From the IMG/VR virus record IMGVR_UViG_3300030107_002792: DNA of 64,000 nucleotides; one strand, 5' to 3'. Numbering within the stretch: position 1 is the stretch's first letter; every line of letters begins with the position of its first letter. Below the pieces are notes generated by a model that made no database searches, was not told where the DNA came from, and was given only the letters and a program-made list of their open reading frames with translations. This document shows, piece by piece, positions 29,990-53,820 of this stretch. Origin of the DNA: an uncultured virus (IMG/VR IMGVR_UViG_3300030107_002792). Its lineage: Duplodnaviria > Heunggongvirae > Uroviricota > Caudoviricetes > Kyanoviridae. The translations under genes and the position numbers were made by a program.

Positions 29990-32900
29990 ATGGCAAGAAC
30001 TGTTCCTGGATCTGGTGCTGTAATTAACCCAATTTTCGATGAGACTTTTGGTGTTCGTGCAGTAGAAGTATTAAAAGGGGGATCTGGATACTCGGTATCC
30101 GACCCACCTAAACTTTCTGTGACTGGATGTGGAACTCCAGATGTAGAGGCATTATTATATCCAATTATCGATTCTGATTCAGGAAAGATTATACATGTTA
30201 GGGTTCTGAATAGAGGTAGTGGATATGATCCTTTACGTTTACAAATTATCCCACAAGGAGAAACTCCTAATGTTGTAACATCATTTGATTTCAATAGAAT
30301 ATGGCAAACGCATCCTAACTCTACAACTACTGGTGCTTTTTCAGGAACTACTGATAGATTATTAATTGCATCAGACAATCATCCAAAACCTACTTGGACT
30401 CAAGCAGAGGCAGCACCAGGTGGTGGTCCTTTAGTTGATAGAACATTTAATCAAACCTTTGTTTTTAGAGGTGGTAAAGACGTTCCTAATAATGGTACTA
30501 GAGAAAATCAACAAGATAAGGTTGTAGGTATTTTAGCAAATGGTGGATTACTTCATACTCCTGAATGGGGTCCAGATGGTAATGCTCCTCCAGGACATTC
30601 TATTGATGCAGTTAAAAATAATTACGTTAAATCTAATGATGTATATGATGTTGTTACTGAAAACAATATCAAATATTATCATTCAAACAAACTTATTAAT
30701 GAATGGGAATTAAAAAATGGTGTATTTGATTGGGGATTATTAAGACCATTTACTTGGAATATTAAAGTTGAATACGATAATATAATGTTGCAAGTTACTG
30801 ATGTTGATGAAACATTAGGAACTATTACTGTTGGTAGATTAGTTGATGAAATTGCTGGAAATGCTAGAGGTGAAATTGCTAAAGTTGTTAGAAATAATCA
30901 AAACGTAGTTACTAGAATATATCTAAGAGACCTTTCTACATCTGCATCATTCTCTCAAGGTGACGGGTGTTTAGGATCTAACGGGTTTAATTTTAAAATT
31001 CAAGAAGTTCCTTTAGCATTTCCAACTGGGGTATTCTATATTGATTTTGGTACAGAAGCAAGTGAGTTTGGTTCATTTACTCCAGGAACCTATTATATGG
31101 CTCCTGAGAATATTAAAGTTCAAAGAAATTATTTGATTATTTGGAATCAATCTGATAGTTCTAATAGTCAAGGTGCTCAAGGGCATCCAATGAGATTTAG
31201 TACAACTCCAGATGGTCCTTTGAATCAAACTCCTGGTACACTTTATTATAAGAGCACTGGAGTAACAGAAGCACCTGCGGCTGATTATGAAAATGAATAT
31301 CAACCGCTATTCATTATGAATCAGGATGAATCAGCAAGAATTTATTACCATTGTGCTTACCATACACATATGTCTGGTTACACTGGTGATGAAGGATATA
31401 TGATTTTTGATTCAACAGTTGATAACGATCCAAGACCAAATACTTATTATACTGATAATTTTTATCAAAGTGATTCAAACAATCCTGCGACTATTGATCG
31501 TTCAAGACATACAGATGGACATTCTAAGATTCTTGGTATGTCATTTGATGGATATCCCATTTATGGTCCTTATGGATATCTTTTAGGTGGTACTAGTATT
31601 ATAACTACTACCCCCAGTTTAAGTTACTATGGTGGTCTTTTCTATCAGGTTGGTGATGGTTACCCAACTGTTGCTCAAACTGGATCTGGATCTGGTGCTG
31701 TTGTTAATATAACAGCAATTGGTACTTATCAGACTGGTGGTATTGAGACAATTACTATAGCTGAAGGTGGAAGTGGATACGCTGTTGGTGATAAAATTAG
31801 AATCCTTCATAAGTATGATGGAGCATTTGTATCTGGATATACGCATAGTTCTTGGAATGCTAATGGAGATAGAACTGAAGGAGTGTATGGTGAAGTTGGC
31901 ACTGCGTCTGAATTCACAGTTCAAGCTTCATGGACTTCTGCTAATGGTATTGGTGGTAAACCTAAAGTTACTGTTGCTGCTGATGGTTCTGTAACTGGTT
32001 TTACTATGGGTGGCAATGGACCTGAGGCGATACCTGGACCAGATGGTAATATGGGATATAATTATGTCGAAGATGAGGAGATTACTATTCCTGGTAATTA
32101 CATTGGTGGATCTACTCCTGCAGGTGATATACTAGTCAGAGTTGCTTGGGCTACTAATGATGATAGTGGAGTTGCTACTATTACTGCTATAGGTGCAGGG
32201 GTTGGTAAAGAAACTTCAGGATATCGTTTAAAAACATCTTTAGAATTAGCTGGTAATAGACCTGCAGTTACAACAGCAAGTACGGTAACTTATACAGTCA
32301 CTTCTTCTAATGGAAAATATCTCTTCGATGGAGCTTCTCCATCATTCTTAAATCTAGAACGTGGTAAAACTTATGTCTTTAACTTAAATAGTGCTACTAA
32401 TGATAGTCAGCAATTATTGATAGGAATAAATGAAGATGGTTGGCATAGTCAAAACCCTGTTGTAATTGGAGATACTACACAGTTATTTGGTGGACCAGGT
32501 ATCACTTATACTATAGATGGTGCTACAGTATCATACACTGGTTATCTAACTGGATTTAACGGAGCAACGACAAGATCAATTACGTTCCAAGTTCCTGCAA
32601 CTGCACCAGCAGCATTGTACTTGTTTGCATATACAACTGCTGATTATGGACTTAGAACTGTTCAAGATGGATATATTTTAGGAGATTTAATTGATGATAA
32701 TATATTTGATGAATCTGTTCTTTGGGATAGTGGAACTGCTTATGTTATAGGTGAGACTGTAAAAAACTCATCTGATGTAATATACGAAGCAACTGCTGCT
32801 ATTAATAGTGGAGGATCACAACCTGTTCATACTACTGGAACTACTAGTAATTGGAAGTTCCTTGGAAAGAAAGGATCTTTGGATGCTTATAATGGTAAAT

Positions 32901-34930
32901 TCGCAGTAACCCCAGAATATCCTAATGGAACATATGCTTATTATATGATTGAGGATGGTAGTGGTAATCCTGTTTATCCATATGCTATTGGTCCAAGATA
33001 TTATGGATCACCTTTATTTGAAGGTGACACACCACCACCAGCACCTACAATATTCCCAACTGTTGCAGAGGGTGATGTTGTTTTAAGTACTGATAATCCT
33101 GGACAAGTATCTTATATTAAGATGACTAAGAAAGGTGATAATTATTTTGGTGCTGCAACTGCAAGAATTTTAGGTGGTGAAGGAAGTGGTGCTACAGGAA
33201 CACCTACTGTTCAAACAGTTACTGGTCTTTCATTAACTAATCAAGGTAGAAATTATGCAACTCCTCCAACACTTATCTTTGAAGGTGGTGGTGGTCAAGG
33301 TGCTCAAGGTGCTGCTGAAGTTGATATATTAGGTAAGGTTACATCAATTAGTATTGTTAATCAAGGTGAGTATTATGATGAACCTCCATATGTTTTAATT
33401 ACTGGTGGCGGTGGATTAGGTGCTAAAGCAGAGGCAACTGTATCTCAAGGTAAAGTTACTGGTATTAATGTAATAGAACCTGGTGATGGATATACTGGAT
33501 CACCTAATGTTATCTTTACAAAACTTGTTAATCTTAAACGTAAGACAAGAGCAAGACAGGCATTTAACTCATCTAATATATTCTTAACTGGTCTTGTTAA
33601 AACTGTTGCACCAGCAGATACTACGATATATGTTAATTCTACTGCTGCTTATCCAGGATCTGGTACTATTATTCTTAATAGAGAAACTATTACCTACACT
33701 TCTAAAGGAGCAGGTAGATTTACTGGTGTAACCAGAGGTGTTAACTTTAATTACGACCAGAGAATTATTCTTGATGCTGGACAAAATGATTCTGAAGGTA
33801 ATTCAACTTATCAATTCCAAGTTGGTGATAGAGTTATTAGAAAAGTTGAAAATGCTGCTAACAAGGTTGCTAAAGTATATGACTGGGATCCTTCAACTAG
33901 AGAATTATTAGTTGTATTTGAAATTGATGAATTAGCATTTATTGATGGTGGATTACCTTCTACAGAAGATGCAATCGTTCAGTTTGATGCTGGTGTTGCT
34001 GCTTCTGCTCCAAGTGGGTTCCAACCTCATGTTGTTTTACAAACAGCAAATGAAGTAGGGCAAGTTATACCACTTTTAACTGCACCAACACTTACAACAT
34101 TACAAGATGCAGCATTTGAAGATGATGATGAGAACTTGGGTACAGGTGATGGAATACCTGATCTTGTAAATACAAGTACTGATTTTGAAAATCAAATTAG
34201 TCTTGATGGTGGTATCTATAGTTCACTATATGGTATTGAAGCAACTCAGGGTGGTCAAAACACTACTCTATTCCAAGTTGGTGATAATATTAAGGATGGT
34301 TCAATACCATTTAAATATGCCACTGTAGGGACTGCAGGTGCTCTTGCAGACGGTGTAGACCATACTGCACTAGTCAAACTATACCTTGATGCTAATAACG
34401 CTAATGGTCAAAGTTTCAGTGTTAATGAAGTTGTAACGGGTAATATCTCTGGAGTTATTGGAACTGTTGTTACTTGGGATCCTGTAGAGGTAAGTCTTAC
34501 TGTTAAGGATATTGTTCCTTATAATACAGGTGATGTTAATGTTGGTATAGGTGGTTATCTTTATAAATTCTCTGAGAAGGGTACTATAGTTGATTATTAT
34601 GTTCAAACAGCAGGAACTAACTATACACAAACTCCAACACTAGCAGTTGAAAATATTGGTGATATACAAGCAACAGGAACAGTTAATATGACCACTGCTG
34701 GTGACCAAGTTGCAAGTATTACTATAACTAACGGTGGTTATGGTATTACACAATCTGTTGATGGATCATATAACCTTCATCCTACAGTAACATTTAATAA
34801 TGGTGCAGGTGACACCACTGGTTCAGGTGCTAAAGCATATGCAATTATGGGTGGTGAAAACATCGTTGGTAATGGTGGTGCGACTTATCGTATCAAATCA
34901 ATTGAATATACTACACAGGTTCGTTCGTAA
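29990..34930 (+). CDS. large virion structural protein with split YHYH-like domain, cupredoxin-like and CBM-like inserts
   Basis: 'HSKILGMSFDGYPIYGPYGY' ... 'LDAYNGKFAVTPEYPNGTYAYY', GSGY repeats, 'HPM...YYHCAYHTHM'; located in the baseplate cluster. Confidence 0.75.
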   Translation: MARTVPGSGAVINPIFDETFGVRAVEVLKGGSGYSVSDPPKLSVTGCGTPDVEALLYPIIDSDSGKIIHVRVLNRGSGYDPLRLQIIPQGETPNVVTSFDFNRIWQTHPNSTTTGAFSGTTDRLLIASDNHPKPTWTQAEAAPGGGPLVDRTFNQTFVFRGGKDVPNNGTRENQQDKVVGILANGGLLHTPEWGPDGNAPPGHSIDAVKNNYVKSNDVYDVVTENNIKYYHSNKLINEWELKNGVFDWGLLRPFTWNIKVEYDNIMLQVTDVDETLGTITVGRLVDEIAGNARGEIAKVVRNNQNVVTRIYLRDLSTSASFSQGDGCLGSNGFNFKIQEVPLAFPTGVFYIDFGTEASEFGSFTPGTYYMAPENIKVQRNYLIIWNQSDSSNSQGAQGHPMRFSTTPDGPLNQTPGTLYYKSTGVTEAPAADYENEYQPLFIMNQDESARIYYHCAYHTHMSGYTGDEGYMIFDSTVDNDPRPNTYYTDNFYQSDSNNPATIDRSRHTDGHSKILGMSFDGYPIYGPYGYLLGGTSIITTTPSLSYYGGLFYQVGDGYPTVAQTGSGSGAVVNITAIGTYQTGGIETITIAEGGSGYAVGDKIRILHKYDGAFVSGYTHSSWNANGDRTEGVYGEVGTASEFTVQASWTSANGIGGKPKVTVAADGSVTGFTMGGNGPEAIPGPDGNMGYNYVEDEEITIPGNYIGGSTPAGDILVRVAWATNDDSGVATITAIGAGVGKETSGYRLKTSLELAGNRPAVTTASTVTYTVTSSNGKYLFDGASPSFLNLERGKTYVFNLNSATNDSQQLLIGINEDGWHSQNPVVIGDTTQLFGGPGITYTIDGATVSYTGYLTGFNGATTRSITFQVPATAPAALYLFAYTTADYGLRTVQDGYILGDLIDDNIFDESVLWDSGTAYVIGETVKNSSDVIYEATAAINSGGSQPVHTTGTTSNWKFLGKKGSLDAYNGKFAVTPEYPNGTYAYYMIEDGSGNPVYPYAIGPRYYGSPLFEGDTPPPAPTIFPTVAEGDVVLSTDNPGQVSYIKMTKKGDNYFGAATARILGGEGSGATGTPTVQTVTGLSLTNQGRNYATPPTLIFEGGGGQGAQGAAEVDILGKVTSISIVNQGEYYDEPPYVLITGGGGLGAKAEATVSQGKVTGINVIEPGDGYTGSPNVIFTKLVNLKRKTRARQAFNSSNIFLTGLVKTVAPADTTIYVNSTAAYPGSGTIILNRETITYTSKGAGRFTGVTRGVNFNYDQRIILDAGQNDSEGNSTYQFQVGDRVIRKVENAANKVAKVYDWDPSTRELLVVFEIDELAFIDGGLPSTEDAIVQFDAGVAASAPSGFQPHVVLQTANEVGQVIPLLTAPTLTTLQDAAFEDDDENLGTGDGIPDLVNTSTDFENQISLDGGIYSSLYGIEATQGGQNTTLFQVGDNIKDGSIPFKYATVGTAGALADGVDHTALVKLYLDANNANGQSFSVNEVVTGNISGVIGTVVTWDPVEVSLTVKDIVPYNTGDVNVGIGGYLYKFSEKGTIVDYYVQTAGTNYTQTPTLAVENIGDIQATGTVNMTTAGDQVASITITNGGYGITQSVDGSYNLHPTVTFNNGAGDTTGSGAKAYAIMGGENIVGNGGATYRIKSIEYTTQVRS

Positions 34931-34968: not shown

Positions 34969-36501
34969 ATGGCAGCTCTATTAACTGATCAATTTAGAAT
35001 TTTTTCAGCTCAAAAATTCATTAAAGCTCTTGAGGGTCCAGATGCAACCCAGAGCGACACGGCTGCGGGTGCAACGAGAGATCGTTTGTACTTGTTTATT
35101 GGAAGACCGCAAAGTTGGGACAATGAAAACTCGCCTCCACAGGCAGTTGATTCATTCTCAGAATTTTCTGGTGCTTATGATGATATGGTTTCTCTGAAGA
35201 GAGTCCTTGCTTCAGATACCGTTCAGGTGGTTCGTAGAATTGACTGGGTTTCTCCAGAACAAACTACTGGTGGATTAGGTTTTACCTATGACATGTATCG
35301 CCAAGACTATTCTCCTAGTAAAACTGCTGCATCTGGTGCTACTAAACTATATGATTCTGACTTTTACGTTGTAAACTCTCAGTATCAAGTATATAAGTGC
35401 ATCTATAACGGAACTTCACCTTCCGATCCTAACGGAAAACCTTCGACTGTTGAACCAACTGGAACATCTACTTCAATTATTACCACTGGTGATGGTTATC
35501 GTTGGAAGTATATGTATACTATTCCTGTTGCATCAGTTCTTAAGTTCTTCTCTACAGACTATATGCCTGTCTTTACTAATGATTCTGTAAAGACAAATGC
35601 TGTTGCTGGTGAGATTGACACTGTAGTAATTAATGCTGCTGGAACTGGTTATAACAACGGAACTTATGATAACGTTGCTATTAATGGTGACGGAACAGGT
35701 GGTCGAGTTTCCATCGTTGTTGACGGTGGTAAAGTCATTTCAGCAACTGTTACCTCTGGTGGTACTGGTTATACCTTTGGTAAAATTAGTGTTGATAATA
35801 TAACTGGTATTGGAACAGGAACTGGTGGACAAGTTGATGTTATCATTCCTCCTCCTGGTGGTCATGGTTCTGACGCAGTTGTAGAAATTGGTGCTTTCCG
35901 AGTTATGATTAACGCCAAACTCTCATATGATGAGGGTGCAGGTGACTTCCCGATTGATAACGACTATCGTCGTATTGGTCTAATTACTAATCCTTTAAAG
36001 TTTGGAACTGCAGAATTAATTGCAGACTTGACTGTTTCTGCTACTAAAGCAGCAATTTTCTCACCTACTTTCCAAGGTAATTACGTTCCTGATGAGATCA
36101 TTACTCAAACACGTGTTGTTGGTGGAACCAACGTTACTGCTCGTGCAAGAGTTATTTCATGGAATGCAACAACAAAAGTTTTGAAATACTATCAAAACTC
36201 TGTAGATGGTATCTTCCCTGAAGTTACTGGTACACAAAATGAGTTTGATGGATCTAACGTTATAAGTGGAGCGACATCTGGTGCAGCTGGTCAACCTGAT
36301 GTTAACTTCCCTGCCGTCCCTAATTCTTCTTCTAGAACCATTAATAATACCGAGTATGACTTGGGTATGAAATTTAATAATGGTTATGCAAAACCTGAAG
36401 TCGCTTCAAGTAGCGGTTCAGTTGTTTACATAGATAATAGGAGATCTATTAGTCGTGCAAACGACCAGGTAGAAGATATTAAAATCGTAATCGAGTTCTA
36501 A
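34969..36501 (+). CDS. gp8: baseplate wedge subunit gp8
   Basis: 'LYLFIGRPQSW', 'VVRRIDW', 'YQVYKCIYNG', 'DGYRWKYMYTI', C-terminal 'YIDNRRSISRANDQVEDIKIVIEF'. Confidence 0.92.
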   Translation: MAALLTDQFRIFSAQKFIKALEGPDATQSDTAAGATRDRLYLFIGRPQSWDNENSPPQAVDSFSEFSGAYDDMVSLKRVLASDTVQVVRRIDWVSPEQTTGGLGFTYDMYRQDYSPSKTAASGATKLYDSDFYVVNSQYQVYKCIYNGTSPSDPNGKPSTVEPTGTSTSIITTGDGYRWKYMYTIPVASVLKFFSTDYMPVFTNDSVKTNAVAGEIDTVVINAAGTGYNNGTYDNVAINGDGTGGRVSIVVDGGKVISATVTSGGTGYTFGKISVDNITGIGTGTGGQVDVIIPPPGGHGSDAVVEIGAFRVMINAKLSYDEGAGDFPIDNDYRRIGLITNPLKFGTAELIADLTVSATKAAIFSPTFQGNYVPDEIITQTRVVGGTNVTARARVISWNATTKVLKYYQNSVDGIFPEVTGTQNEFDGSNVISGATSGAAGQPDVNFPAVPNSSSRTINNTEYDLGMKFNNGYAKPEVASSSGSVVYIDNRRSISRANDQVEDIKIVIEF

Positions 36502-44262: not shown

Positions 44263-47200
44263 ATGGCAAATAGAATTCAATTAAGAAGAGGTGGTGCTCA
44301 GGATTGGGCTAACTCTAACCCGACCCTAGCACAAGGTGAATTAGGTATTGAACTTGATACTGGTAGATTTAAAATAGGTGACGGTGTTACCGCTTGGAAT
44401 ACTTTACGGTATGAGCGTCCCGTAGAATCTACTTCTAATACTGCAAATACACTTGTACAAAGAGATGCTGATGGTAACTTCTCTGCAGGAACTATCACAT
44501 CAACCCTTATCGGTAATGCTTCAACTTCTTCAAGACTTGCATCTGCTAGACAGCTTACGTTATCAGATGACATAGTAGGATCTGGTGTTTTTGATGGTTC
44601 TGCCAACCTCACTATATCTACTGGACTACAATTAATTTCAACTCTACCTCATTATGATGGAACTGCTAGTGCTTCTGCAACTTATACAAAGGTAACTGTA
44701 GACGCAAAAGGTAGAATTACAAATGCTTCTACACCTTCAACTCTTGCTGATTATAACCTTAATGGAACTGTAGAGGGATCATCAGCTCAACCATATGATT
44801 TAGACTTAGTTGCACTTTCTGGTCTTACTACTACTGGTATTATTGCTAGAACTAGTGGTGGTGCTATGTCAACCAGAACCATTACTGGTACTGCTACAAG
44901 AATTGGTATGACCAATGGTAATGGTGTTTCTGGAAACCCAACTATTGACCTTATTACTACTGCAGTGCAAGCAGGTGATTATAATACAGAGTCTCTAACA
45001 TCAGTATCTGGTGTTGGTAGTAACAGTGAACCATTTGGTACACAAACTGTAAACGCTACGAAATTTACAGTTGATGCATATGGTAGACTAACTAGTGCAA
45101 CTAATGTACCTATTGCCACAGCAGTAGAAGGAACAGATGCAGCAGCATACAACGCAGGAACGACCTATTCCAGAGGTGATAAGATCACTAATGCGTCGAA
45201 ACTTTATCAAGCCATTGCAGGTATCTCGGCAGGAGCTGGCGCACCTACTCATTCAGATACTAGTGATGCTGGATCGTGGAGACACCTCGGTGCAGTTACG
45301 ACAAAACAAAAAGGTCTCGCTTCCTTTGCTCAAGAAGATTTCGATGTATCTGCAGGGGGTCACGTTAGTCTCTCTGCTGCTGGTATTGACAATTCTCAAT
45401 TACAAAACAGTAGAATTTCCTTTGCTGACGGCAACGCGAAAGAGGACTTCGACCTCGACCAAGAATTAACTACGACTACAGGATATCGTGGATTCAATAA
45501 ACTCAACTATATCAAGATTAATGATACAAGTGGTAATCTACTGTTTGGGGCAAATAATACGGGTGATAGTAGTGCTGGAGAGATTGATGTCAACGTCAGA
45601 TCCTATTTCAGTGATCCAGACATTACCCTCGATGGGGCGGTTGCACAAACTTTAGATAAGACTGGAGATGGTAATCTAACATTCCAGACTACACAGAACT
45701 CAACATCTGCTAGAACCTTAAGTATTTTAGCAACTAACGCTGGTTCTGGTGCTAGTGGTGTTGTAGTAACTGCAGAAAATACAGTTACTATCACTGCATC
45801 AGACGCTGCTGGTAAAGTACAAGTAGAAGACACATATTTCCAAGGAGATTATATTGCTTCCTCTGCTGCTACCATGATCTTGGATCCTGGTGATGATAGA
45901 GCAGTAAGTGGTAAAGTTCAAATAATGGGGGACTTACAAGTAGATGGAACGACTACAACAATTAATTCAGCAGTCACTACTCTGGATGATCCTATTATCA
46001 CTCTTGGTGGTGATACTGCTCCAGCGTCAGATGACAATAAGGACAGAGGAGTTGAATTCAGATATTACGACGCTTCGGCAAAGGTTGGATTCTTTGGTTA
46101 CGACGATTCAGCCGCAGATCTTGGAGGGCATACAGGAGCGTTTACATTCCTCTACGATGCCACAAATTCCTCCGAAGTATTCTCTGGAACAGATGCAGGG
46201 ATCATCGCTGGTAATTTAAAACTAACAACAAATACTAACTCAACATCTAATACTACTGGAGATTTGGTAGTAGCAGGTGGTGTTGGTATTGGTGATGATG
46301 TTAATATTGGTGGACTATTAGATGTAGATGGTACATTCCGTGCTAATAGCACATCTAGATTTGATGATAATATTGTATTACAAGGTGCTTCTAAGACACT
46401 TCAACTTAATAATGGATCTGGAACTACTAAGATTGAGTTACAATCTACAACTGGTAATGCTAATATAGGTGGTATCTTAACTAACACTGGTGCTATTGAT
46501 GCTAACTCTAGTTTAGACGTAGCAGGTTTAGTTCATTTTGAATCTACTGATGCTCCAACTATTGCTTTAAATGGTGGAACAAATCTTTATGAGATTCAAA
46601 GTTCTGACTATGGTTCATTACAAGTAGATGGTGGTGGATATATTGATAAAGACGTTCTCTTTAATGGAGACATTTATATAAACGGTGATCTTAACCAGAG
46701 AGATAGTGGTACTGAGAGTTGGGGATTCAGGAACTGGTTGCAGGTCAGATATAAGGGAAGATTTGGTTCAAGTGTTGCTTACAACCCAACTTATGCTACA
46801 CATAACACTTCTAACTTAAGAGTGTATGGTGGTGCTGGTGTTGCTCAAAATTTACATGTTGGTGCTACAGGAACTGGAGAAGGTTTCTTTGTTGGTAAGA
46901 AGAACTCTGGAGACACAGTTAAGTTTAGTGTTTTAGGTGCTTCTGGTAATACAACTATTGTTGGTGATCTTACAGTTAACGCTGCTGTTGACTTTGACAC
47001 TACTTTAAACGTTGATGGTGCTGCTACATTCCAAGATAATGTTACTATCAATGCTGATAATAAAATGTTTACTATCGAGAATAACTCGGCAGTAGACCAA
47101 TTTACAGTTGATACAGATAATGGTAACACATATGTTGGTGGATCATTAACAGTTGATGATGCTGCTGAATTAAATTCAACATTAAATGTTGATGCTGGTG

Positions 47201-50200
47201 CTACATTCCAAGACAATGTTACGATTAACGCAGATAATAAATTCTTTAAAGTCCAGAATAATTCGAGTGCTGACAAGTTTACCGTTGATACGGATAACGG
47301 CAACACTGTTATCGCTGGTACTCTTGACGTTACTAGTAATGTCGGTATCGACGGAAACTTTGATATTGCTACTTCTAAGTTTACTGTTGCTGCTGCTACT
47401 GGTAATACTGTTATTGACGGAACTGTTGATATAGATGAGCAACTTACAGTTACTTCTGGTGTAACAATTAATGATGCTAATAAAACATTTGATATTCAAA
47501 ATGGATCTGCTGTATCTAAGTTTAGTGTAGATACTGACAATGGTAACACTAACATTATTGGTACATTAACCGTTGGTGATGCTACACAGATTAATGACAC
47601 CTTTGGTGTTTCAGGTGTAGTAACTGCTACGGCAAACACAGAGCAAACTCTAACAGGATCATACGCTGCTGATGGTGCTGCAAGATTCTCTGGTGGTATT
47701 GGATTAGCAAAGAACTTAGCAGTTGGTGGTGGAGCACGAGTCTACGGTAATACAGAACTAACAGGAACATTAGATCTTAATAACTCTGCAGATATCTCTG
47801 GTGCTTTAGTAACTCATGATAATGTTACTATCACTGCAGATAACAAAACATTTGCTATTCAAAATGCATCTGCTGCTAATAAACTTACAGTAGATACCGA
47901 CAATGGTAATACTGATATTCGTGGAACATTAGATGTTGGTGGTGATGTAACTGCTGAATCTAACCTCACAATTACGGGGAATCTTACTGTCAATGGAACA
48001 ACAACTACTGTCAATTCTACGGTTACAACTCTCGATGACCCTATCATTACTGTGGGTGGTGACACAGCACCCGCGTCTAACGACGGTAAGGATCGTGGTG
48101 TTGAGTTCCGTTATTACGACGGTTCTGCGAAAATTGGGTTCTTCGGATATGACAGATCAACCTCCGAATTTGCACTCTTAACATCTGTTACTAATACTGC
48201 TGAAGTAATGGCAGGTACTGATGGTGCTTTAAGAATTGGATCAGTTCATGTAACTGGTGCTGGCACTTCCTTAGATGTAGATAATAATTTAAATGTAGAT
48301 GGTGCTGCTACAGTTGACGGTCAAATAACTTCTAATGTTGCTGATGGAACTGCTCCATTGGTTATCACATCTACAACTAAAGTTAATAACCTAAACGTTG
48401 ATCGTTTAGATAACATGACAACTGCAAGTGCAAACACTGCATCCACAGTTGTTAATCGTGATGCTTCTGGAGACTTTGCTGCAAATCAAATTACTGCTGC
48501 TAGTGCTGCTGGTTCTGGTGCAGGTTTCTTAGGTAACGCAACCACTGCTGACGCATGGAAGACTGCTAGAGTATTCACCCTTGATGGTGTTGTATCTGGT
48601 TCTGTATCTGTAGATGGTAGTGCTGCTCCAACATTAACAACAACATATGTTGATGCTGATATAACTGCTTTGGCAGCGATGAGTGGCACAGGATACGTTG
48701 TAAGAACTGCTGCAAATACATACGCACAAAGAACACTTGCTGTTACAGCATCCTCTGGTATTACACTTACCAATGCTGATGGTGTATCAGGTAACACAAC
48801 AATTAACGTTGCTTCTGCAAGTTCAAACGCTGCAAACAACTTAGTCATACGTGACGGATCTGGAGACTTTGCTGCTAATGAGATTACTTCAGACTTAGTT
48901 GGTAACCTTACAGGTGCTACTTCTACTGCTAAGGATCTTAATCCTGCTGCTGATAGCACATACGATCTTGGAACTAATACAGTTAGATGGCAGACTTTAT
49001 ATGCAGATACTGTAAATGCAACCACATACGTTGGTTCTCTTACAGGTACTTCTTCTGATGCTGCTGCAATTACTGTTGCTGATGAATCTGCTGATACATC
49101 ATGTAATGTGGTATTTGTTACTGCAGCTACTGGATCACTTGCTCCTAAGACAGGAACTAACTTAACCTTTAATTCCAGTACTGGAAATCTTGCTGCTACT
49201 ACCTTTACAGGTCTTGTAGTTGGAGATGTTACTGGCGATGTTACAGGTAATGCTGACACCGCAACTCTTGCTTCAACAGTTACTGTTGCTGACGAGTCAA
49301 CTGATACTTCATGTAATGTTTTATTCGCAACCGCAGCAACTGGTTCTCTTGGAGTTAAGAGTGGAACTAATCTAACTTTTGATTCTGCAAATGGAGTTCT
49401 AACTACTACTTCTGTAACTGGAAATCTAACTGGTAATTTAATTGCTACAACATCTACTGCTAAGAATCTTAACCCTGCTGCTGATAGTGCTCATGATCTA
49501 GGAACTAACACTGTTCGTTGGCAGAATGTATATGCAGATGCTGCTAATATCACTGCTATAACAGGAACCTTAACTGGTACTGCATCTAGTATTGCAAACC
49601 ATAATACTGATGCATTAACTGAAGGATCAACTAATTTATACTTCACTGATGAGCGTGTAGATGATAGACTTAATGCTGTTATCGTTGCTGGCACAGGTGT
49701 TACTAAGGTATATGATGATGGTGCTAATACATACACACTATCTGTTACTCAGGCAGATGTTAATACCGATAACATAACAGAAGGAAGCACAAATCTATTC
49801 TTCACTAATGAAAGAGTAGATGACAGATTGAATGCTGTTATCGTTGCTGGTACTGGTGTTACTAAGGTTTATGATGACGCTGCTAACACATATACGTTAT
49901 CAGTTACACAGGCAGATGTTAATACTGATACTGTAACTGAGGGATCAACAAATCTCTTTACTACTGCTGCAAGAACCAGAACTCACTTTACATATGGAAC
50001 TGGTATTACACATAGTTCTGGAACTCTATCTGTAACTCAAGCAGATATTAATACAGACAATGTAACTGAAGGATCAACAAATCTCTTTACCACTGCTGCT
50101 AGAACTAGAGGTCACTTTACATACGGCACAGGTATTACACACAGTTCAGGTACTCTTAGTGTTACTCAGGCAGACATAGACACAGATAATATTACTGAAG

Positions 50201-52077
50201 GTTCAACAAATGTATTCTTTACTAACACTCGTGCTGATGCAAGAGTTGCTGCTGCTACTGGTGCAAACTTAGATCTATCAAGTAAGTCTACAACTAACCT
50301 TTCTGAAGGAACTAATCAATACTATACAGAAGCAAGAGTTCAAGCAAAACTTGACAGTGCTTATGAGCAACTAAGAGCAATGTTGAATAACCTTGCTACT
50401 GCAACAACACTAAAACTGAATCTATCTGGAGACCCAACTCCTGGTGCAGTTGTAACTCTTGGATCTATCTCTAATGGTGGTCTTGGTGGATACACTGCTG
50501 GAACAAATGTTGCTACTACAGGTGGAACTGGATCAGCATTAACAGTTGATACTACAGTGACCAGTGGTGCTATAACTGGAATTACTTTAAACACTGCAGG
50601 TACTGGTTATCTTATTGGCGATACAATTACAATTACTAACCCTAATCTAGGTGGTGTTAAGACACTTAACCTTGGATCACTATCTAATGGTGTTGGAGGA
50701 TTTAGTTCTGGAACTGCTGTTGCTACTTCATCATCTGGATCAGGAACTAGTTGCACAGTTAATACAACTGCTGATGGCAACGGTGCTATTACTAACGTAG
50801 TAATTAACGCTGCAGGGTCTGGTTATGCCATTGGAGAGACCTTAACCATTACTAACCCTAATGCAGGTGGTGTAGCAACCGTAGACACGCTTGTAGGTGG
50901 CACAGGATACGCTAACGGAACTGCTATTGCTACTACAGGTGGTGGAGGATCAAGTTTATCACTAGATCTTACAACCTCTAATGGTGTTGTGACTGGAGTT
51001 GCAGTTAATGCTGCTGGTACAGGATACGCTGTAGATGAGACAATAACGATTGTAAATGCTAACGCAACTGGTGCTAAGACTCTTGGTTCTATTGCAACTG
51101 CAGGAACTGGATATGCTGCTGGATCTGCAATCGCAACTGCTGCTTCTGCTTCTGGATCTTCTGCAACTGTTGACATTACAGTTGATGGATCTGGTGCTGT
51201 AACAGGTGTCACAATTAATGATGATGGTACTGGATATGCAGCATCTGAAGTATTGACAATTACTAACGCTAATGCATCTGGAGTTCGGACTCTCGGTTCT
51301 ATCAGTGCTGCTGGTACTGGTTACACTGCTGCAAATGGAGTTGCTACAACTTCATCTGGATCAGGAACTGGATTGACTGTTGATATTACAGTTTCTGCTG
51401 GTGGTGTTGCTGGAGTTACCATCAATGATGATGGATCTGGTTATGCTGCATCTGAGGTAATTACTATCACTAATGCTAATGCAAGTGGTGTTAAGACTCT
51501 TGGATCAATAACTGCTGCAGGAACTGGATACACTTCTGGAACAGTTACTGGAGTTGCTACAACTTCATCTGGATCTGGAACAGGATTAACAGTTGATGTT
51601 ACTGCTGATGGATCAGGAAATGTTACTGGTGTTGCAATTAATAATGATGGATTGAATTATGCAGCATCTGAAATTATAACTATATCAGGTGAAGGTAATG
51701 GTGATGCAACCATAACCGTATCTGCTATTCATACAAGTGGAGCACAAATCCCTGTTTCTGCAATACATGGTAACGGATGCACAATACCTGTTTCCGCTAT
51801 ACATGGAAATGGAGCAACAGTTGATGTTGCTACAATCTTTGCTAATGCAACAGTTAATACTTCTACAGTATTCACCAATGCAACCTTCGCACTCTCTGAC
51901 ATCACAACGATGGAAGTTGGTGCAACAGTAACTGGAGCAACCTCTGGTACAACTGGAGTTATAACTGCTATGGATGCAACTTCAGTCACAGTTGATAATG
52001 TCGATGGTTTCTATAAAAAAGGAGAAACCGTTGGTGCTAATGATGTCACTAATCTGACTATAAGTTCATTCGGATAA
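44263..52077 (+). CDS. long tail-fibre-like protein, 2604 aa
   Basis: N-terminal 'RIQLRRG..WANSNPTLAQGELGIELDTGRFKIGDG..AWNTL' (Mtd-N-type fibre attachment motif); G/T/A/S-rich fibre repeats ('VTVDAKGRIT', 'FTVDTDNGNT', 'DLGTNTVRW', 'TEGSTNLYFT'); upstream of the neck genes. Confidence 0.85.
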   Translation: MANRIQLRRGGAQDWANSNPTLAQGELGIELDTGRFKIGDGVTAWNTLRYERPVESTSNTANTLVQRDADGNFSAGTITSTLIGNASTSSRLASARQLTLSDDIVGSGVFDGSANLTISTGLQLISTLPHYDGTASASATYTKVTVDAKGRITNASTPSTLADYNLNGTVEGSSAQPYDLDLVALSGLTTTGIIARTSGGAMSTRTITGTATRIGMTNGNGVSGNPTIDLITTAVQAGDYNTESLTSVSGVGSNSEPFGTQTVNATKFTVDAYGRLTSATNVPIATAVEGTDAAAYNAGTTYSRGDKITNASKLYQAIAGISAGAGAPTHSDTSDAGSWRHLGAVTTKQKGLASFAQEDFDVSAGGHVSLSAAGIDNSQLQNSRISFADGNAKEDFDLDQELTTTTGYRGFNKLNYIKINDTSGNLLFGANNTGDSSAGEIDVNVRSYFSDPDITLDGAVAQTLDKTGDGNLTFQTTQNSTSARTLSILATNAGSGASGVVVTAENTVTITASDAAGKVQVEDTYFQGDYIASSAATMILDPGDDRAVSGKVQIMGDLQVDGTTTTINSAVTTLDDPIITLGGDTAPASDDNKDRGVEFRYYDASAKVGFFGYDDSAADLGGHTGAFTFLYDATNSSEVFSGTDAGIIAGNLKLTTNTNSTSNTTGDLVVAGGVGIGDDVNIGGLLDVDGTFRANSTSRFDDNIVLQGASKTLQLNNGSGTTKIELQSTTGNANIGGILTNTGAIDANSSLDVAGLVHFESTDAPTIALNGGTNLYEIQSSDYGSLQVDGGGYIDKDVLFNGDIYINGDLNQRDSGTESWGFRNWLQVRYKGRFGSSVAYNPTYATHNTSNLRVYGGAGVAQNLHVGATGTGEGFFVGKKNSGDTVKFSVLGASGNTTIVGDLTVNAAVDFDTTLNVDGAATFQDNVTINADNKMFTIENNSAVDQFTVDTDNGNTYVGGSLTVDDAAELNSTLNVDAGATFQDNVTINADNKFFKVQNNSSADKFTVDTDNGNTVIAGTLDVTSNVGIDGNFDIATSKFTVAAATGNTVIDGTVDIDEQLTVTSGVTINDANKTFDIQNGSAVSKFSVDTDNGNTNIIGTLTVGDATQINDTFGVSGVVTATANTEQTLTGSYAADGAARFSGGIGLAKNLAVGGGARVYGNTELTGTLDLNNSADISGALVTHDNVTITADNKTFAIQNASAANKLTVDTDNGNTDIRGTLDVGGDVTAESNLTITGNLTVNGTTTTVNSTVTTLDDPIITVGGDTAPASNDGKDRGVEFRYYDGSAKIGFFGYDRSTSEFALLTSVTNTAEVMAGTDGALRIGSVHVTGAGTSLDVDNNLNVDGAATVDGQITSNVADGTAPLVITSTTKVNNLNVDRLDNMTTASANTASTVVNRDASGDFAANQITAASAAGSGAGFLGNATTADAWKTARVFTLDGVVSGSVSVDGSAAPTLTTTYVDADITALAAMSGTGYVVRTAANTYAQRTLAVTASSGITLTNADGVSGNTTINVASASSNAANNLVIRDGSGDFAANEITSDLVGNLTGATSTAKDLNPAADSTYDLGTNTVRWQTLYADTVNATTYVGSLTGTSSDAAAITVADESADTSCNVVFVTAATGSLAPKTGTNLTFNSSTGNLAATTFTGLVVGDVTGDVTGNADTATLASTVTVADESTDTSCNVLFATAATGSLGVKSGTNLTFDSANGVLTTTSVTGNLTGNLIATTSTAKNLNPAADSAHDLGTNTVRWQNVYADAANITAITGTLTGTASSIANHNTDALTEGSTNLYFTDERVDDRLNAVIVAGTGVTKVYDDGANTYTLSVTQADVNTDNITEGSTNLFFTNERVDDRLNAVIVAGTGVTKVYDDAANTYTLSVTQADVNTDTVTEGSTNLFTTAARTRTHFTYGTGITHSSGTLSVTQADINTDNVTEGSTNLFTTAARTRGHFTYGTGITHSSGTLSVTQADIDTDNITEGSTNVFFTNTRADARVAAATGANLDLSSKSTTNLSEGTNQYYTEARVQAKLDSAYEQLRAMLNNLATATTLKLNLSGDPTPGAVVTLGSISNGGLGGYTAGTNVATTGGTGSALTVDTTVTSGAITGITLNTAGTGYLIGDTITITNPNLGGVKTLNLGSLSNGVGGFSSGTAVATSSSGSGTSCTVNTTADGNGAITNVVINAAGSGYAIGETLTITNPNAGGVATVDTLVGGTGYANGTAIATTGGGGSSLSLDLTTSNGVVTGVAVNAAGTGYAVDETITIVNANATGAKTLGSIATAGTGYAAGSAIATAASASGSSATVDITVDGSGAVTGVTINDDGTGYAASEVLTITNANASGVRTLGSISAAGTGYTAANGVATTSSGSGTGLTVDITVSAGGVAGVTINDDGSGYAASEVITITNANASGVKTLGSITAAGTGYTSGTVTGVATTSSGSGTGLTVDVTADGSGNVTGVAINNDGLNYAASEIITISGEGNGDATITVSAIHTSGAQIPVSAIHGNGCTIPVSAIHGNGATVDVATIFANATVNTSTVFTNATFALSDITTMEVGATVTGATSGTTGVITAMDATSVTVDNVDGFYKKGETVGANDVTNLTISSFG
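49606..50340 (+). repeat. tandem TEGSTN(L/V)xxT fibre repeats (6 units)
   Basis: Two near-identical ~53-aa units and two near-identical ~43-aa units, plus two degenerate ones. Confidence 0.9.
50440..51903 (+). repeat. six serially nested Gly/Thr-rich modules at the tail-fibre C-terminus
   Basis: Six ~65-70-aa 'G-V-x-T-L...GTGY...TITN' openers followed by six 11-12-aa closing strands. Confidence 0.8.
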
Positions 52078-52893: not shown

Positions 52894-53820
52894 ATGACTT
52901 TTAGAAATACACCAGCACAAGATTACGTTCAATCCGATTATACGTCTTCATCTCGTTTACAAATAAACGGTTCTGCTCAAGAGCAGAAGTTCATGGAAAA
53001 CCTTATCGTAGAGAGCATTGAAATTTATGGGCAAGACATATATTATGTACCGAGAACTATCGTCAATCGTGACACGGTTTTCGGAGAAGATTCGGATGGC
53101 AAGTTCGAGTCTGCAAAACCAATCCGAGCCTACGTCAATAATGTCGATGGATGGGAAGGACAAGGTGAGTTACTTACAAAGTTTGGAATACGCATCGAAG
53201 ATAAAACGACGTTTATATTCTCCCGTGAAAAGTTTAAAGAAAAGGTTGACGACTCTACAGTCCTTAATGTCGAAGGAAGACCAAACGAGGGGGATCTAAT
53301 TTGGTTCCCAATAACAAAACATTTATTTGAAATACAATTTGTAGAAGTTGAGCGTCCTTTCTATCAGTTAGGTAAAGGATATGTTTGGGAATGTCAGTGT
53401 GAACTCTTCGAGTACAGTGATGAAGAAATTAACACTGGTATCACTGAACTGGATGCTGTTGAGACTGCCTTTGCTAATGCTATTACGGTTGGTCTCGTAG
53501 CTGGTGGTAGTGGAGACTTTACTGTTGGAGAAACTGTTACTGGAGGATCATCTAATGTTACGGCTGAGGTTAAGTCTTGGGATTCTTCTACTAGGACTCT
53601 CATCGTTATCAATCGTTCTGGTATCTTTACTATCCCAGAAACAGTTACGGGGGGAACATCTAGTGCCTCTTGGACAACTGCTACATATAATACAATAGAT
53701 AATAAGGCAGTTACCTATGATCAAAATTATGAATTTGAAACTGCCGACGATGATATCATTGACTTCTCCGAATCAAATCCATTTGGTTCTATCGGATCTA
53801 CTACTGACTTGACAATCTAA
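52894..53820 (+). CDS. gp14: neck protein gp14
   Basis: 'EQKFMENLIVESIEIYGQDIYYVPR', 'RPNEGDLIWFP', 'PFYQLGK', 'DFSESNPFG'. Confidence 0.95.
   Translation: MTFRNTPAQDYVQSDYTSSSRLQINGSAQEQKFMENLIVESIEIYGQDIYYVPRTIVNRDTVFGEDSDGKFESAKPIRAYVNNVDGWEGQGELLTKFGIRIEDKTTFIFSREKFKEKVDDSTVLNVEGRPNEGDLIWFPITKHLFEIQFVEVERPFYQLGKGYVWECQCELFEYSDEEINTGITELDAVETAFANAITVGLVAGGSGDFTVGETVTGGSSNVTAEVKSWDSSTRTLIVINRSGIFTIPETVTGGTSSASWTTATYNTIDNKAVTYDQNYEFETADDDIIDFSESNPFGSIGSTTDLTI

Follow-up and report, generated by a model that had tools for sequence, protein, structure and literature searches.

In an uncultured marine cyanophage, a giant fibre protein very probably ends, over its last ~545 residues, in six small β-barrels nested one inside the next, each finished by a returning strand, in mirror order. 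The protein is encoded in 64,000 nucleotides (nt) of an uncultured Kyanoviridae virus (IMG/VR record IMGVR_UViG_3300030107_002792); this whole stretch is referred to here as the window. Its C-terminal block consists of six modules of about 70 amino acids (aa), the openers, followed by six strands of 11 or 12 aa, the closers. From the window alone, a first-pass annotation proposed that each module interrupts its predecessor just ahead of the final strand; this idea is now supported by the module and closer counts of 54 of 54 distinct homologous C-termini, the mirror order of the junctions, paired indels between isolates, the homology of the closers and a two-level AlphaFold2 model.

In the proposed architecture, the C-terminus is a hairpin-like chain of six small, mostly six-stranded β-barrels. 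The chain would lay down strands 1–5 of barrel 1, exit through the loop before the last strand, build strands 1–5 of barrel 2, and continue in this way to barrel 6, which would be complete and contiguous. The returning chain would then supply the sixth strands in mirror order (6, 5, 4, 3, 2, 1) and go on to complete a small end domain. Neighbouring barrels would thus be joined by two chain crossings rather than one. The termini of an antiparallel barrel meet at one end, opposite the loop that precedes the last strand; therefore, the barrels would line up as a straight chain with double links. At the far tip of this array would be the innermost barrel and not the C-terminus, an arrangement that would suit a swappable binding domain, and a level (a module plus its strand) or the tip domain could be gained, lost or swapped with the flanks undisturbed.

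The translation of 50380–52077 confirms the basic layout described by the first-pass annotation. The open reading frame (ORF) ends with six modules (69, 72, 68, 70, 69 and 70 aa), six short strands (12, 12, 12, 12, 11 and 11 aa) and a 57-aa end domain, in that order; the module series starts at nt 50440, the closer series occupies nt 51694–51903, and the end domain (TTMEVGATVTG...) runs to the stop at 52077. The module endings (NPN, NPN, NANA, NANA, NANA and ISGE) and the closer initials (G, H, H, H, F and F) are also as first described. The features are as follows:

44263..52077, plus strand: giant fibre/structural protein ORF, 2604 aa, with Mtd_N at the N-terminus; phrog_697; directly upstream of gp13
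50404..50439, plus strand: N-side anchor TTLKLNLSGDPT, the proposed first strand of the end domain split by the block
50440..50646, plus strand: module 1, strands 1–5 of the proposed outermost barrel; ends NPN
50647..50862, plus strand: module 2; ends NPN
50863..51066, plus strand: module 3; ends NANA
51067..51276, plus strand: module 4; ends NANA
51277..51483, plus strand: module 5; ends NANA; part of the two-level AlphaFold2 model
51484..51693, plus strand: module 6, the proposed innermost barrel, likely at the far tip; runs on directly into its own closing strand
51694..51729, plus strand: proposed closer for module 6, GNGDATITVSAI; strand E145–153 in the two-level model
51730..51765, plus strand: proposed closer for module 5, HTSGAQIPVSAI; strand E157–163 in the two-level model, in which outer-domain alignments span model residues 2..164
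51766..51801, plus strand: proposed closer for module 4, HGNGCTIPVSAI; paired by mirror order
51802..51837, plus strand: proposed closer for module 3, HGNGATVDVATI; paired by mirror order
51838..51870, plus strand: proposed closer for module 2, FANATVNTSTV (11 aa); paired by mirror order
51871..51903, plus strand: proposed closer for module 1, FTNATFALSDI (11 aa); paired by mirror order
51904..52074, plus strand: C-terminal small domain of 57 aa, TTMEVGATVTG...SSFG; column identity averages 86% over 28 sequences

Four metagenome contigs (L005–L008; 91–94% protein identity) share the six-plus-six layout, which is thus not an assembly artefact. Tandem Repeats Finder reports a 207-nt period over modules 4–6 and a 36-nt period over closers 2–3. 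A hidden Markov model (HMM) of the six modules gives six full-length matches (independent E-values 1e-27 to 1e-32), confined to the fibre ORF, a circular result in that the model was built from those same modules. Two features of the closers are also worth recording: closers 2–4 (51730–51837) have a His directly after the last Ile of the preceding closer, with H451, H463 and H475 invariant in 22 six-level sequences, and one closer (HGNGCTIPVSAI) carries a conserved Cys.

The first-pass annotation expected openers and closers to co-vary in homologous fibres, and they do. The collection comprised four phage records and 78 viral-contig loci in addition to the window; three loci in which the contig end removes the N-side anchor (L055, L077 and L078) were dropped, and the 79 that were left, taken with the window, amount to 54 distinct C-termini once duplicates are collapsed. 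Modules were counted with the six-module HMM, accepting matches that cover at least 70% of the model, and closers in 11- or 12-residue steps backward from the end-domain anchor. The number of modules equals the number of closers in 54/54 distinct C-termini, with the number of levels (N) ranging from 2 to 8: two distinct sequences each have N = 2, N = 3 and N = 7, three have N = 8, six have N = 4, 16 have N = 5 and 23 have N = 6. As the counts are equal in every distinct sequence over seven values of N, the pattern exceeds chance. The total lengths of the C-termini fall into classes ~82 aa apart, which corresponds to one module plus one closer and not to a module alone. A two-level C-terminus such as that of S-H25 or L081 measures about 236 aa with both flanks counted. 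A form with N = 1 also exists: P0035 has, by eye, one module and one closer, and is matched over 188 aa by the proteins of S-P4 (100% identity) and Syn30 (99.5%).

The clearest evidence comes from two pairs of near-identical isolates. Two S-RIM12 genomes, KX349327 (N = 2) and KX349319 (N = 1), share ~180 aa upstream of the block at 100% identity and differ by two separate gaps, one of ~60 aa straight after LSGDPTP and one of 12 aa among the closers. The flanks are near-identical in two S-RIM14 genomes, KX349303 (N = 3) and KX349305 (N = 2), and the innermost contiguous domain is present only in the N = 3 form; its place in the N = 2 form is taken by a 13-aa loop (QPVGSDPLGPGAG) that joins strand 5 to the closing strand in barrel 2. 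The difference looks like a domain inserted into the 13-aa loop, the inserted unit being present or absent with its host domain intact. The number of levels thus varies within lineages (L086/L087, L002/L085), being 1 or 2 in S-RIM12 and 2 or 3 in S-RIM14. Module 2 also differs within the S-RIM14 pair, which points to recombination in the repeat block. The suggestion of the first-pass annotation that a rod could be tuned in module steps is supported in an evolutionary rather than a dynamic sense, by the variation from N = 1 to N = 8, including the S-RIM12 and S-RIM14 pairs.

Does the closer series return in the order that nesting predicts? The junctions provide one answer. For 236 non-innermost levels, the exit was typed from the residues where it meets the next module (a slash marks this junction below) and the closer by the presence or absence of an initial His; one junction was untypable. 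When modules and closers are paired in mirror order, NxN/xG exits go with non-His closers in 99/107 cases and NAN/x[ST..] exits with His closers in 128/128; pairing in parallel order gives 60/107 and 88/128, respectively. The five-level proteins come in three compositions (3+1, 2+2 and 1+3, with three, two or one outer-type levels), matched by the closer series each time. A second answer comes from comparing module–module with closer–closer identity matrices in 14 proteins, which are related, so that the trials are not independent: the correlation is higher in mirror than in parallel order in 11/14 and falls in the top 5% of permutations in 10/14, with L049, L069 and L073 outside; the window protein ranks 72 of 720 in this permutation test.

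What, then, is a closer? A profile made from an alignment of 18 units of module 6 together with its own closer (contiguous, 83 positions) was searched against 1.84 billion representative proteins and matched 990 at E ≤ 1e-3, 122 at E ≤ 1e-10 and 6 at E ≤ 1e-30. Among the best 150 of the 990 matches, crude HMM coding finds 20 proteins with a single full-length copy and 35 with tandem full copies. In these single and tandem copies, the sequence “...ITI-G-G-N-G-D-A-T-I-x-V” is continuous, with no break before the last strand. Matches of the HMM to modules 1–5 end at position 69–70 of 70–71 in a model that lacks the closer. Because the family domain runs contiguously through its last strand, modules 1–5 are each short of one strand, and exactly five such spare strands follow. 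The closer is, judging by these alignments, a homologue of the last strand of a contiguous ~83-aa domain.

Structure prediction addresses the inner levels. If the domains are nested, any sub-fragment centred on the block should contain whole domains only; hence, modules 5–6 and the first two closers (51274–51765, 164 aa) were folded separately by AlphaFold2 with 21 aligned homologous fragments. The best model has a predicted local distance difference test score (pLDDT) of 83.2 and a predicted template modelling score of 0.58, contains no helix, and folds both closers as strands (E145–153 and E157–163). In a VIA-align comparison with 48,161 chains, small single barrels (such as domains II/III of translation GTPases and a sheath domain) align to model residues 73..153, and barrels of the same kind also align from residues 1–4 to residues 162–164 with only 67–76 residues aligned. 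Since single barrels span the fragment from end to end with so few residues aligned, the outer barrel appears to be made from both fragment ends, around the inner one. Models of homologous cyanophage proteins in BFVD superpose over ~170 columns (TMq 0.55–0.59); these are predictions of the same kind and not independent evidence.

Several observations weigh against nesting or limit its reach. The 54 C-termini are related and hence do not represent 54 independent events. In mirror order, 8/107 junctions break the crude typing rule, all of them NAN/SG or NAN/AG, which the rule mis-types, and L049, L022 and L069 show no advantage of mirror over parallel order. The structure prediction proposed for the block by the first-pass annotation gave a confident best model for the two inner levels; the whole 565-aa C-terminal end folded poorly (pLDDT 47.6), and levels 3–6 are without a confident model. 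Even for two levels, only one of the five models is confident, the rest having pLDDT of 60.3, 57.2, 46.5 and 45.2, and its nested topology was read only from the first and last aligned residues and the aligned lengths. The structural matches are all weak (Z ≤ 5.0, a range that VIA-align calls common) and speak to topology within the model, not to kinship; Foldseek of the model against the PDB found nothing at E ≤ 0.001. Finally, the data fit strand completion within one chain or between the chains of an oligomer alike.

This last point defines the alternative that survives best, although it is unlikely: the out-and-back path would be unchanged, but each returning strand would complete a barrel of a neighbouring chain in a fibre trimer, in a donor-strand-like manner, giving an interlocked bundle rather than three fingers. 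Fibre-type repeats upstream and the Mtd_N N-terminus make an oligomer plausible, and equal counts and mirror order would hold just as well; however, the two inner levels fold in the monomer model, where both closers come out as strands (pLDDT 72–78 in those blocks), and the domain family is found as single copies in many unrelated small proteins. We consider it very improbable that the six short units are a small repeat domain of their own (e.g., a β-solenoid), the number of which tracks that of the modules for another reason, such as matched spacing. The units do form a regular tandem series of 11–12 aa, and closers 3–6 are not strands in the poor full-length model. Yet the homologue of the unit in single, contiguous domains is the terminal strand, and modules 1–5 lack exactly that strand; pairing of the junction types follows mirror order, all 54 sequences have equal counts, and the outer-barrel alignments reach fragment residue 162–164. 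Least credible of all are ordinary tandem repeats with a low-complexity tail, structurally uncoupled and with equal counts inherited from one ancestor: the sequences are indeed related cyanophage proteins, many of the 54 being close variants, but eight values of N (1–8) and three compositions at N = 5 are all balanced, near-identical isolates differ by a paired indel, and unequal crossing-over would unbalance a plain tandem array, while 0/54 are unbalanced.

Nested barrels completed within one chain thus remain the preferred reading, and the whole block may itself split a small end domain. In the N-side anchor, residues L41, S42, G43, D44, P45 and T46 are invariant in 31 sequences. Interruption of a domain between KLNLSGDPT and TMEVG, another claim of the first-pass annotation, was approached by predicting the 46 aa ending in LSGDPT and the 57-aa end domain as a complex. 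Three runs gave interaction scores (ipSAE) of 0.34, 0.49 and 0.12 (median 0.34; best control, 0.00), with partner pLDDT of 66–75 and agreement between runs in at least 29% of contacts. The mark used for this split test is reached by 116/157 solved complexes and 2/215 mismatched pairs, and at ipSAE ≤ 0.60 by only 18 of the 157 solved complexes plus both of the passing mismatches. The conserved flanks and the median ipSAE together point weakly to a split end domain. Among 60 spread rows of 221 matching phage records, no N = 0 homologue was seen. A visual likeness between this end domain and the C-terminal domain of gp14 was dropped as not significant (BLASTP E 0.44).

At the other end of the array, the innermost domain comes in two alternative types. 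The standard type, present in the window (51484–51729), is found in 25/54 C-termini, and a longer type (SGIKTVGNFGATD...GGGG-AALTFDxTAI), followed by a GGGG linker, in 29/54; this suggests that the innermost (tip) domain may be swappable. Judged from sequence, a balanced out-and-back series, cassette-like gain and loss of levels and two alternative innermost domains are established in natural phages. The array likely serves reach and binding at the host surface.

The fold of the module weakly resembles that of a known phage protein domain. The best structural matches are a T4 sheath fragment (3fo8_D; Z 5.0) and the sheath of Klebsiella phage KP1 (9ev2_S1, chain residues 98..187; Z 4.7, root-mean-square deviation 2.8, 75 aligned residues, 25% identity); superpositions on sheath domain I range over Z 4.7–5.0, root-mean-square deviation 2.8–3.8 and 75–97 aligned residues, within the range that the tool calls common. 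Domain I of T4 gp18 is described as a six-stranded barrel plus a helix, residues 98–188 (PMC3004832). The Pfam family of this domain, PF22639 (Gp18_dom_I), scores 13.9–22.6 bits in 5/12 members of the fibre-module family, below its gathering cut-off of 27, and the Pfam scan of the window protein gives no Gp18_dom_I match at E ≤ 1, so that the family cut-off is not reached. The relation between the module and sheath domain I is thus likely one of distant likeness, not membership. Among PDB sequences, phmmer returned only matches at E ≥ 0.33, and a search of the ESM Atlas only unnamed clusters.

The wider family indicates that insertion before the last strand is one of several ways in which this domain can be nested. 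By eye, a module is a duplication of a strand-GxGY-strand-Gly loop-strand unit, and many proteins appear to be opened between the two halves. Among members of the representative library (P-numbered proteins, with nesting judged by eye), P0032, P0046, P0137 and P0118 consist of half-domain A, a full domain and half-domain B; P0018 has three A halves, a full domain and three B halves; and P0005 has five A halves followed by five B halves, together with PA and type IX secretion system (T9SS) sorting domains, which make it probably bacterial. A third arrangement is seen in P0014, where three short first-strand units precede three bodies. Half-domain HMMs find runs of at least two A followed by at least two B in 23 of the 135 proteins that give matches, with equal numbers in 16 of the 23; this detection is crude, as P0005 was scored 4 + 5 and reads 5 + 5 by eye. 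Read in this way, nesting occurs before the last strand (cyanophage fibres), between the pseudo-symmetric halves (up to 5 + 5, in many phage proteins as well as a T9SS surface protein of Bacteroidota type) and after the first strand (P0014). The first-pass annotation had raised the possibility of a general building mode; this is supported, at least for the ~83-aa domain family, which is nested at other loops too. We lean, by a little, toward the broader view that self-nesting is a general expansion mode of this barrel family, an alternative to tandem duplication that uses at least two or three loops and yields doubly linked rods with the innermost domain as the working tip, in which length and tip cassettes would retune contact with the host.

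The window phage is a T4-like cyanomyovirus: over gp13–gp16, its nearest isolates are the Prochlorococcus phages P-SSM4, P-RSM3 and P-SSM3 (77% nucleotide identity). The fibre ORF is followed by gp13 (phrog_211), gp14 (phrog_460) and gp15 (phrog_227) and preceded by baseplate-wedge-like genes and several giant ORFs, one of 8214 aa. The Mtd_N match (PF18454, residues 5–43) scores 46.5 bits, above the Pfam gathering cut-off of 26.3, and the profile of phrog_697, a cyanomyovirus “structural protein”, matches residues 1–2039 with E = 0 and the C-terminal 565 aa with E = 2.6e-119; upstream of the C-terminal block, the protein contains repeats typical of fibres. Two minus-strand ORFs antisense to the repeat block, 50823–51212 (129 aa) and 51729–51989 (86 aa), are Pro/Val/Ala-rich and most likely frame shadows, not genes. 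In T4, the corresponding gene position, upstream of gp13-gp14-gp15, is occupied by wac, which encodes fibritin. The likeness to fibritin is in gene position alone: the protein here is 2604 aa long and starts with Mtd_N, and a Pfam scan of the whole protein at E ≤ 1 found only Mtd_N, a weak CBM_5_12 and a weak YbaB, and no fibritin family.

Other virion proteins show signs of insertion as well. The gp14 neck proteins of S-H25 and S-RIM14 (L083, L084) have ~82 extra aa within the C-terminal small domain, between GDFTVGETxTG and AEVKSW, and this insert holds two GxxY-type half-barrel motifs; gp14 of the window (52894–53820) is without it. The 8214-aa ORF and two further baseplate-type ORFs (4088–28732, 29990–34930 and 34969–36501) match the barrel part of phrog_460 (profile positions ~221–340), and the matching protein spans are 2–3 times longer than the profile span. 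The long spans of these ORF matches hint that other virion proteins of the window phage may have related barrels with insertions.

The usual assumption is that repeat proteins expand by tandem duplication. The fibre domain would instead grow by being placed inside its own copies, up to eight deep and strictly balanced, with whole-level differences between near-identical isolates; should a structure bear this out, the fibre would rank as the most regular case of recursive domain insertion in nature. There would be practical consequences. An annotation rule would follow, namely N openers and N closers in mirror order, and the receptor-binding tip of cyanophage fibres should be sought in the middle of the block, not at the C-terminus. 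Annotators and domain databases should be cautious with 11–12-aa “tail repeats”, which may be parts of upstream domains. With the isolate pairs that differ by one level (S-RIM12 and S-RIM14), it can be tested directly how length affects adsorption and host range.

How does this array compare with known systems? Bacterial surface stalks built of tandem repeats, the “periscope proteins”, also vary in length in whole-domain steps, and streptococcal antigen I/II pairs an outgoing with a returning series of repeats, so that a functional head sits at the tip of the hairpin. These stalks are made of plain tandem domains, or of a helix packed against a polyproline helix, and not of barrels completed by a returning strand. 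No description of the architecture proposed here was found in PubMed Central open-access papers and bioRxiv. Nesting as such has precedents. In T4 gp18 (PMC3004832; PDB 3FO8, 3FOA) and in large sheath proteins (PMC9230969), unlike domains are nested by insertion, as far as the parts of these papers used here describe them. The fibre protein would share domain nesting with gp18, and the six-stranded barrel domain I of gp18 is the best structural match of the fibre module. The two also differ: gp18 is a sheath subunit in which the nested domains are unlike in fold, the depth is fixed and domain I has a helix, whereas the fibre end nests one domain in its own copies, 1–8 deep, its model has no helix, and it gives no match above the Pfam cut-off.

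Like domains are nested in each other in the Si3 insertion in the β′ subunit of cyanobacterial RNA polymerase, known from crystal and cryo-EM structures: according to the excerpts of PMC10895346 used here, it contains eight copies of the sandwich-barrel hybrid motif (SBHM) that are not a simple tandem array, four of them being built from distant segments of the chain. No SBHM chain is among the 50 VIA-align matches listed, which does not thereby exclude a likeness to this motif. Si3 differs from the fibre end in that its unit is the SBHM, its layout is irregular (four continuous and four split domains) and it resides in the trigger loop of an enzyme; stepwise variation in depth between close relatives is not reported in the same excerpts. 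The fibre array is thus an unusually regular and variable form of domain nesting, with gp18 and Si3 as its precedents.

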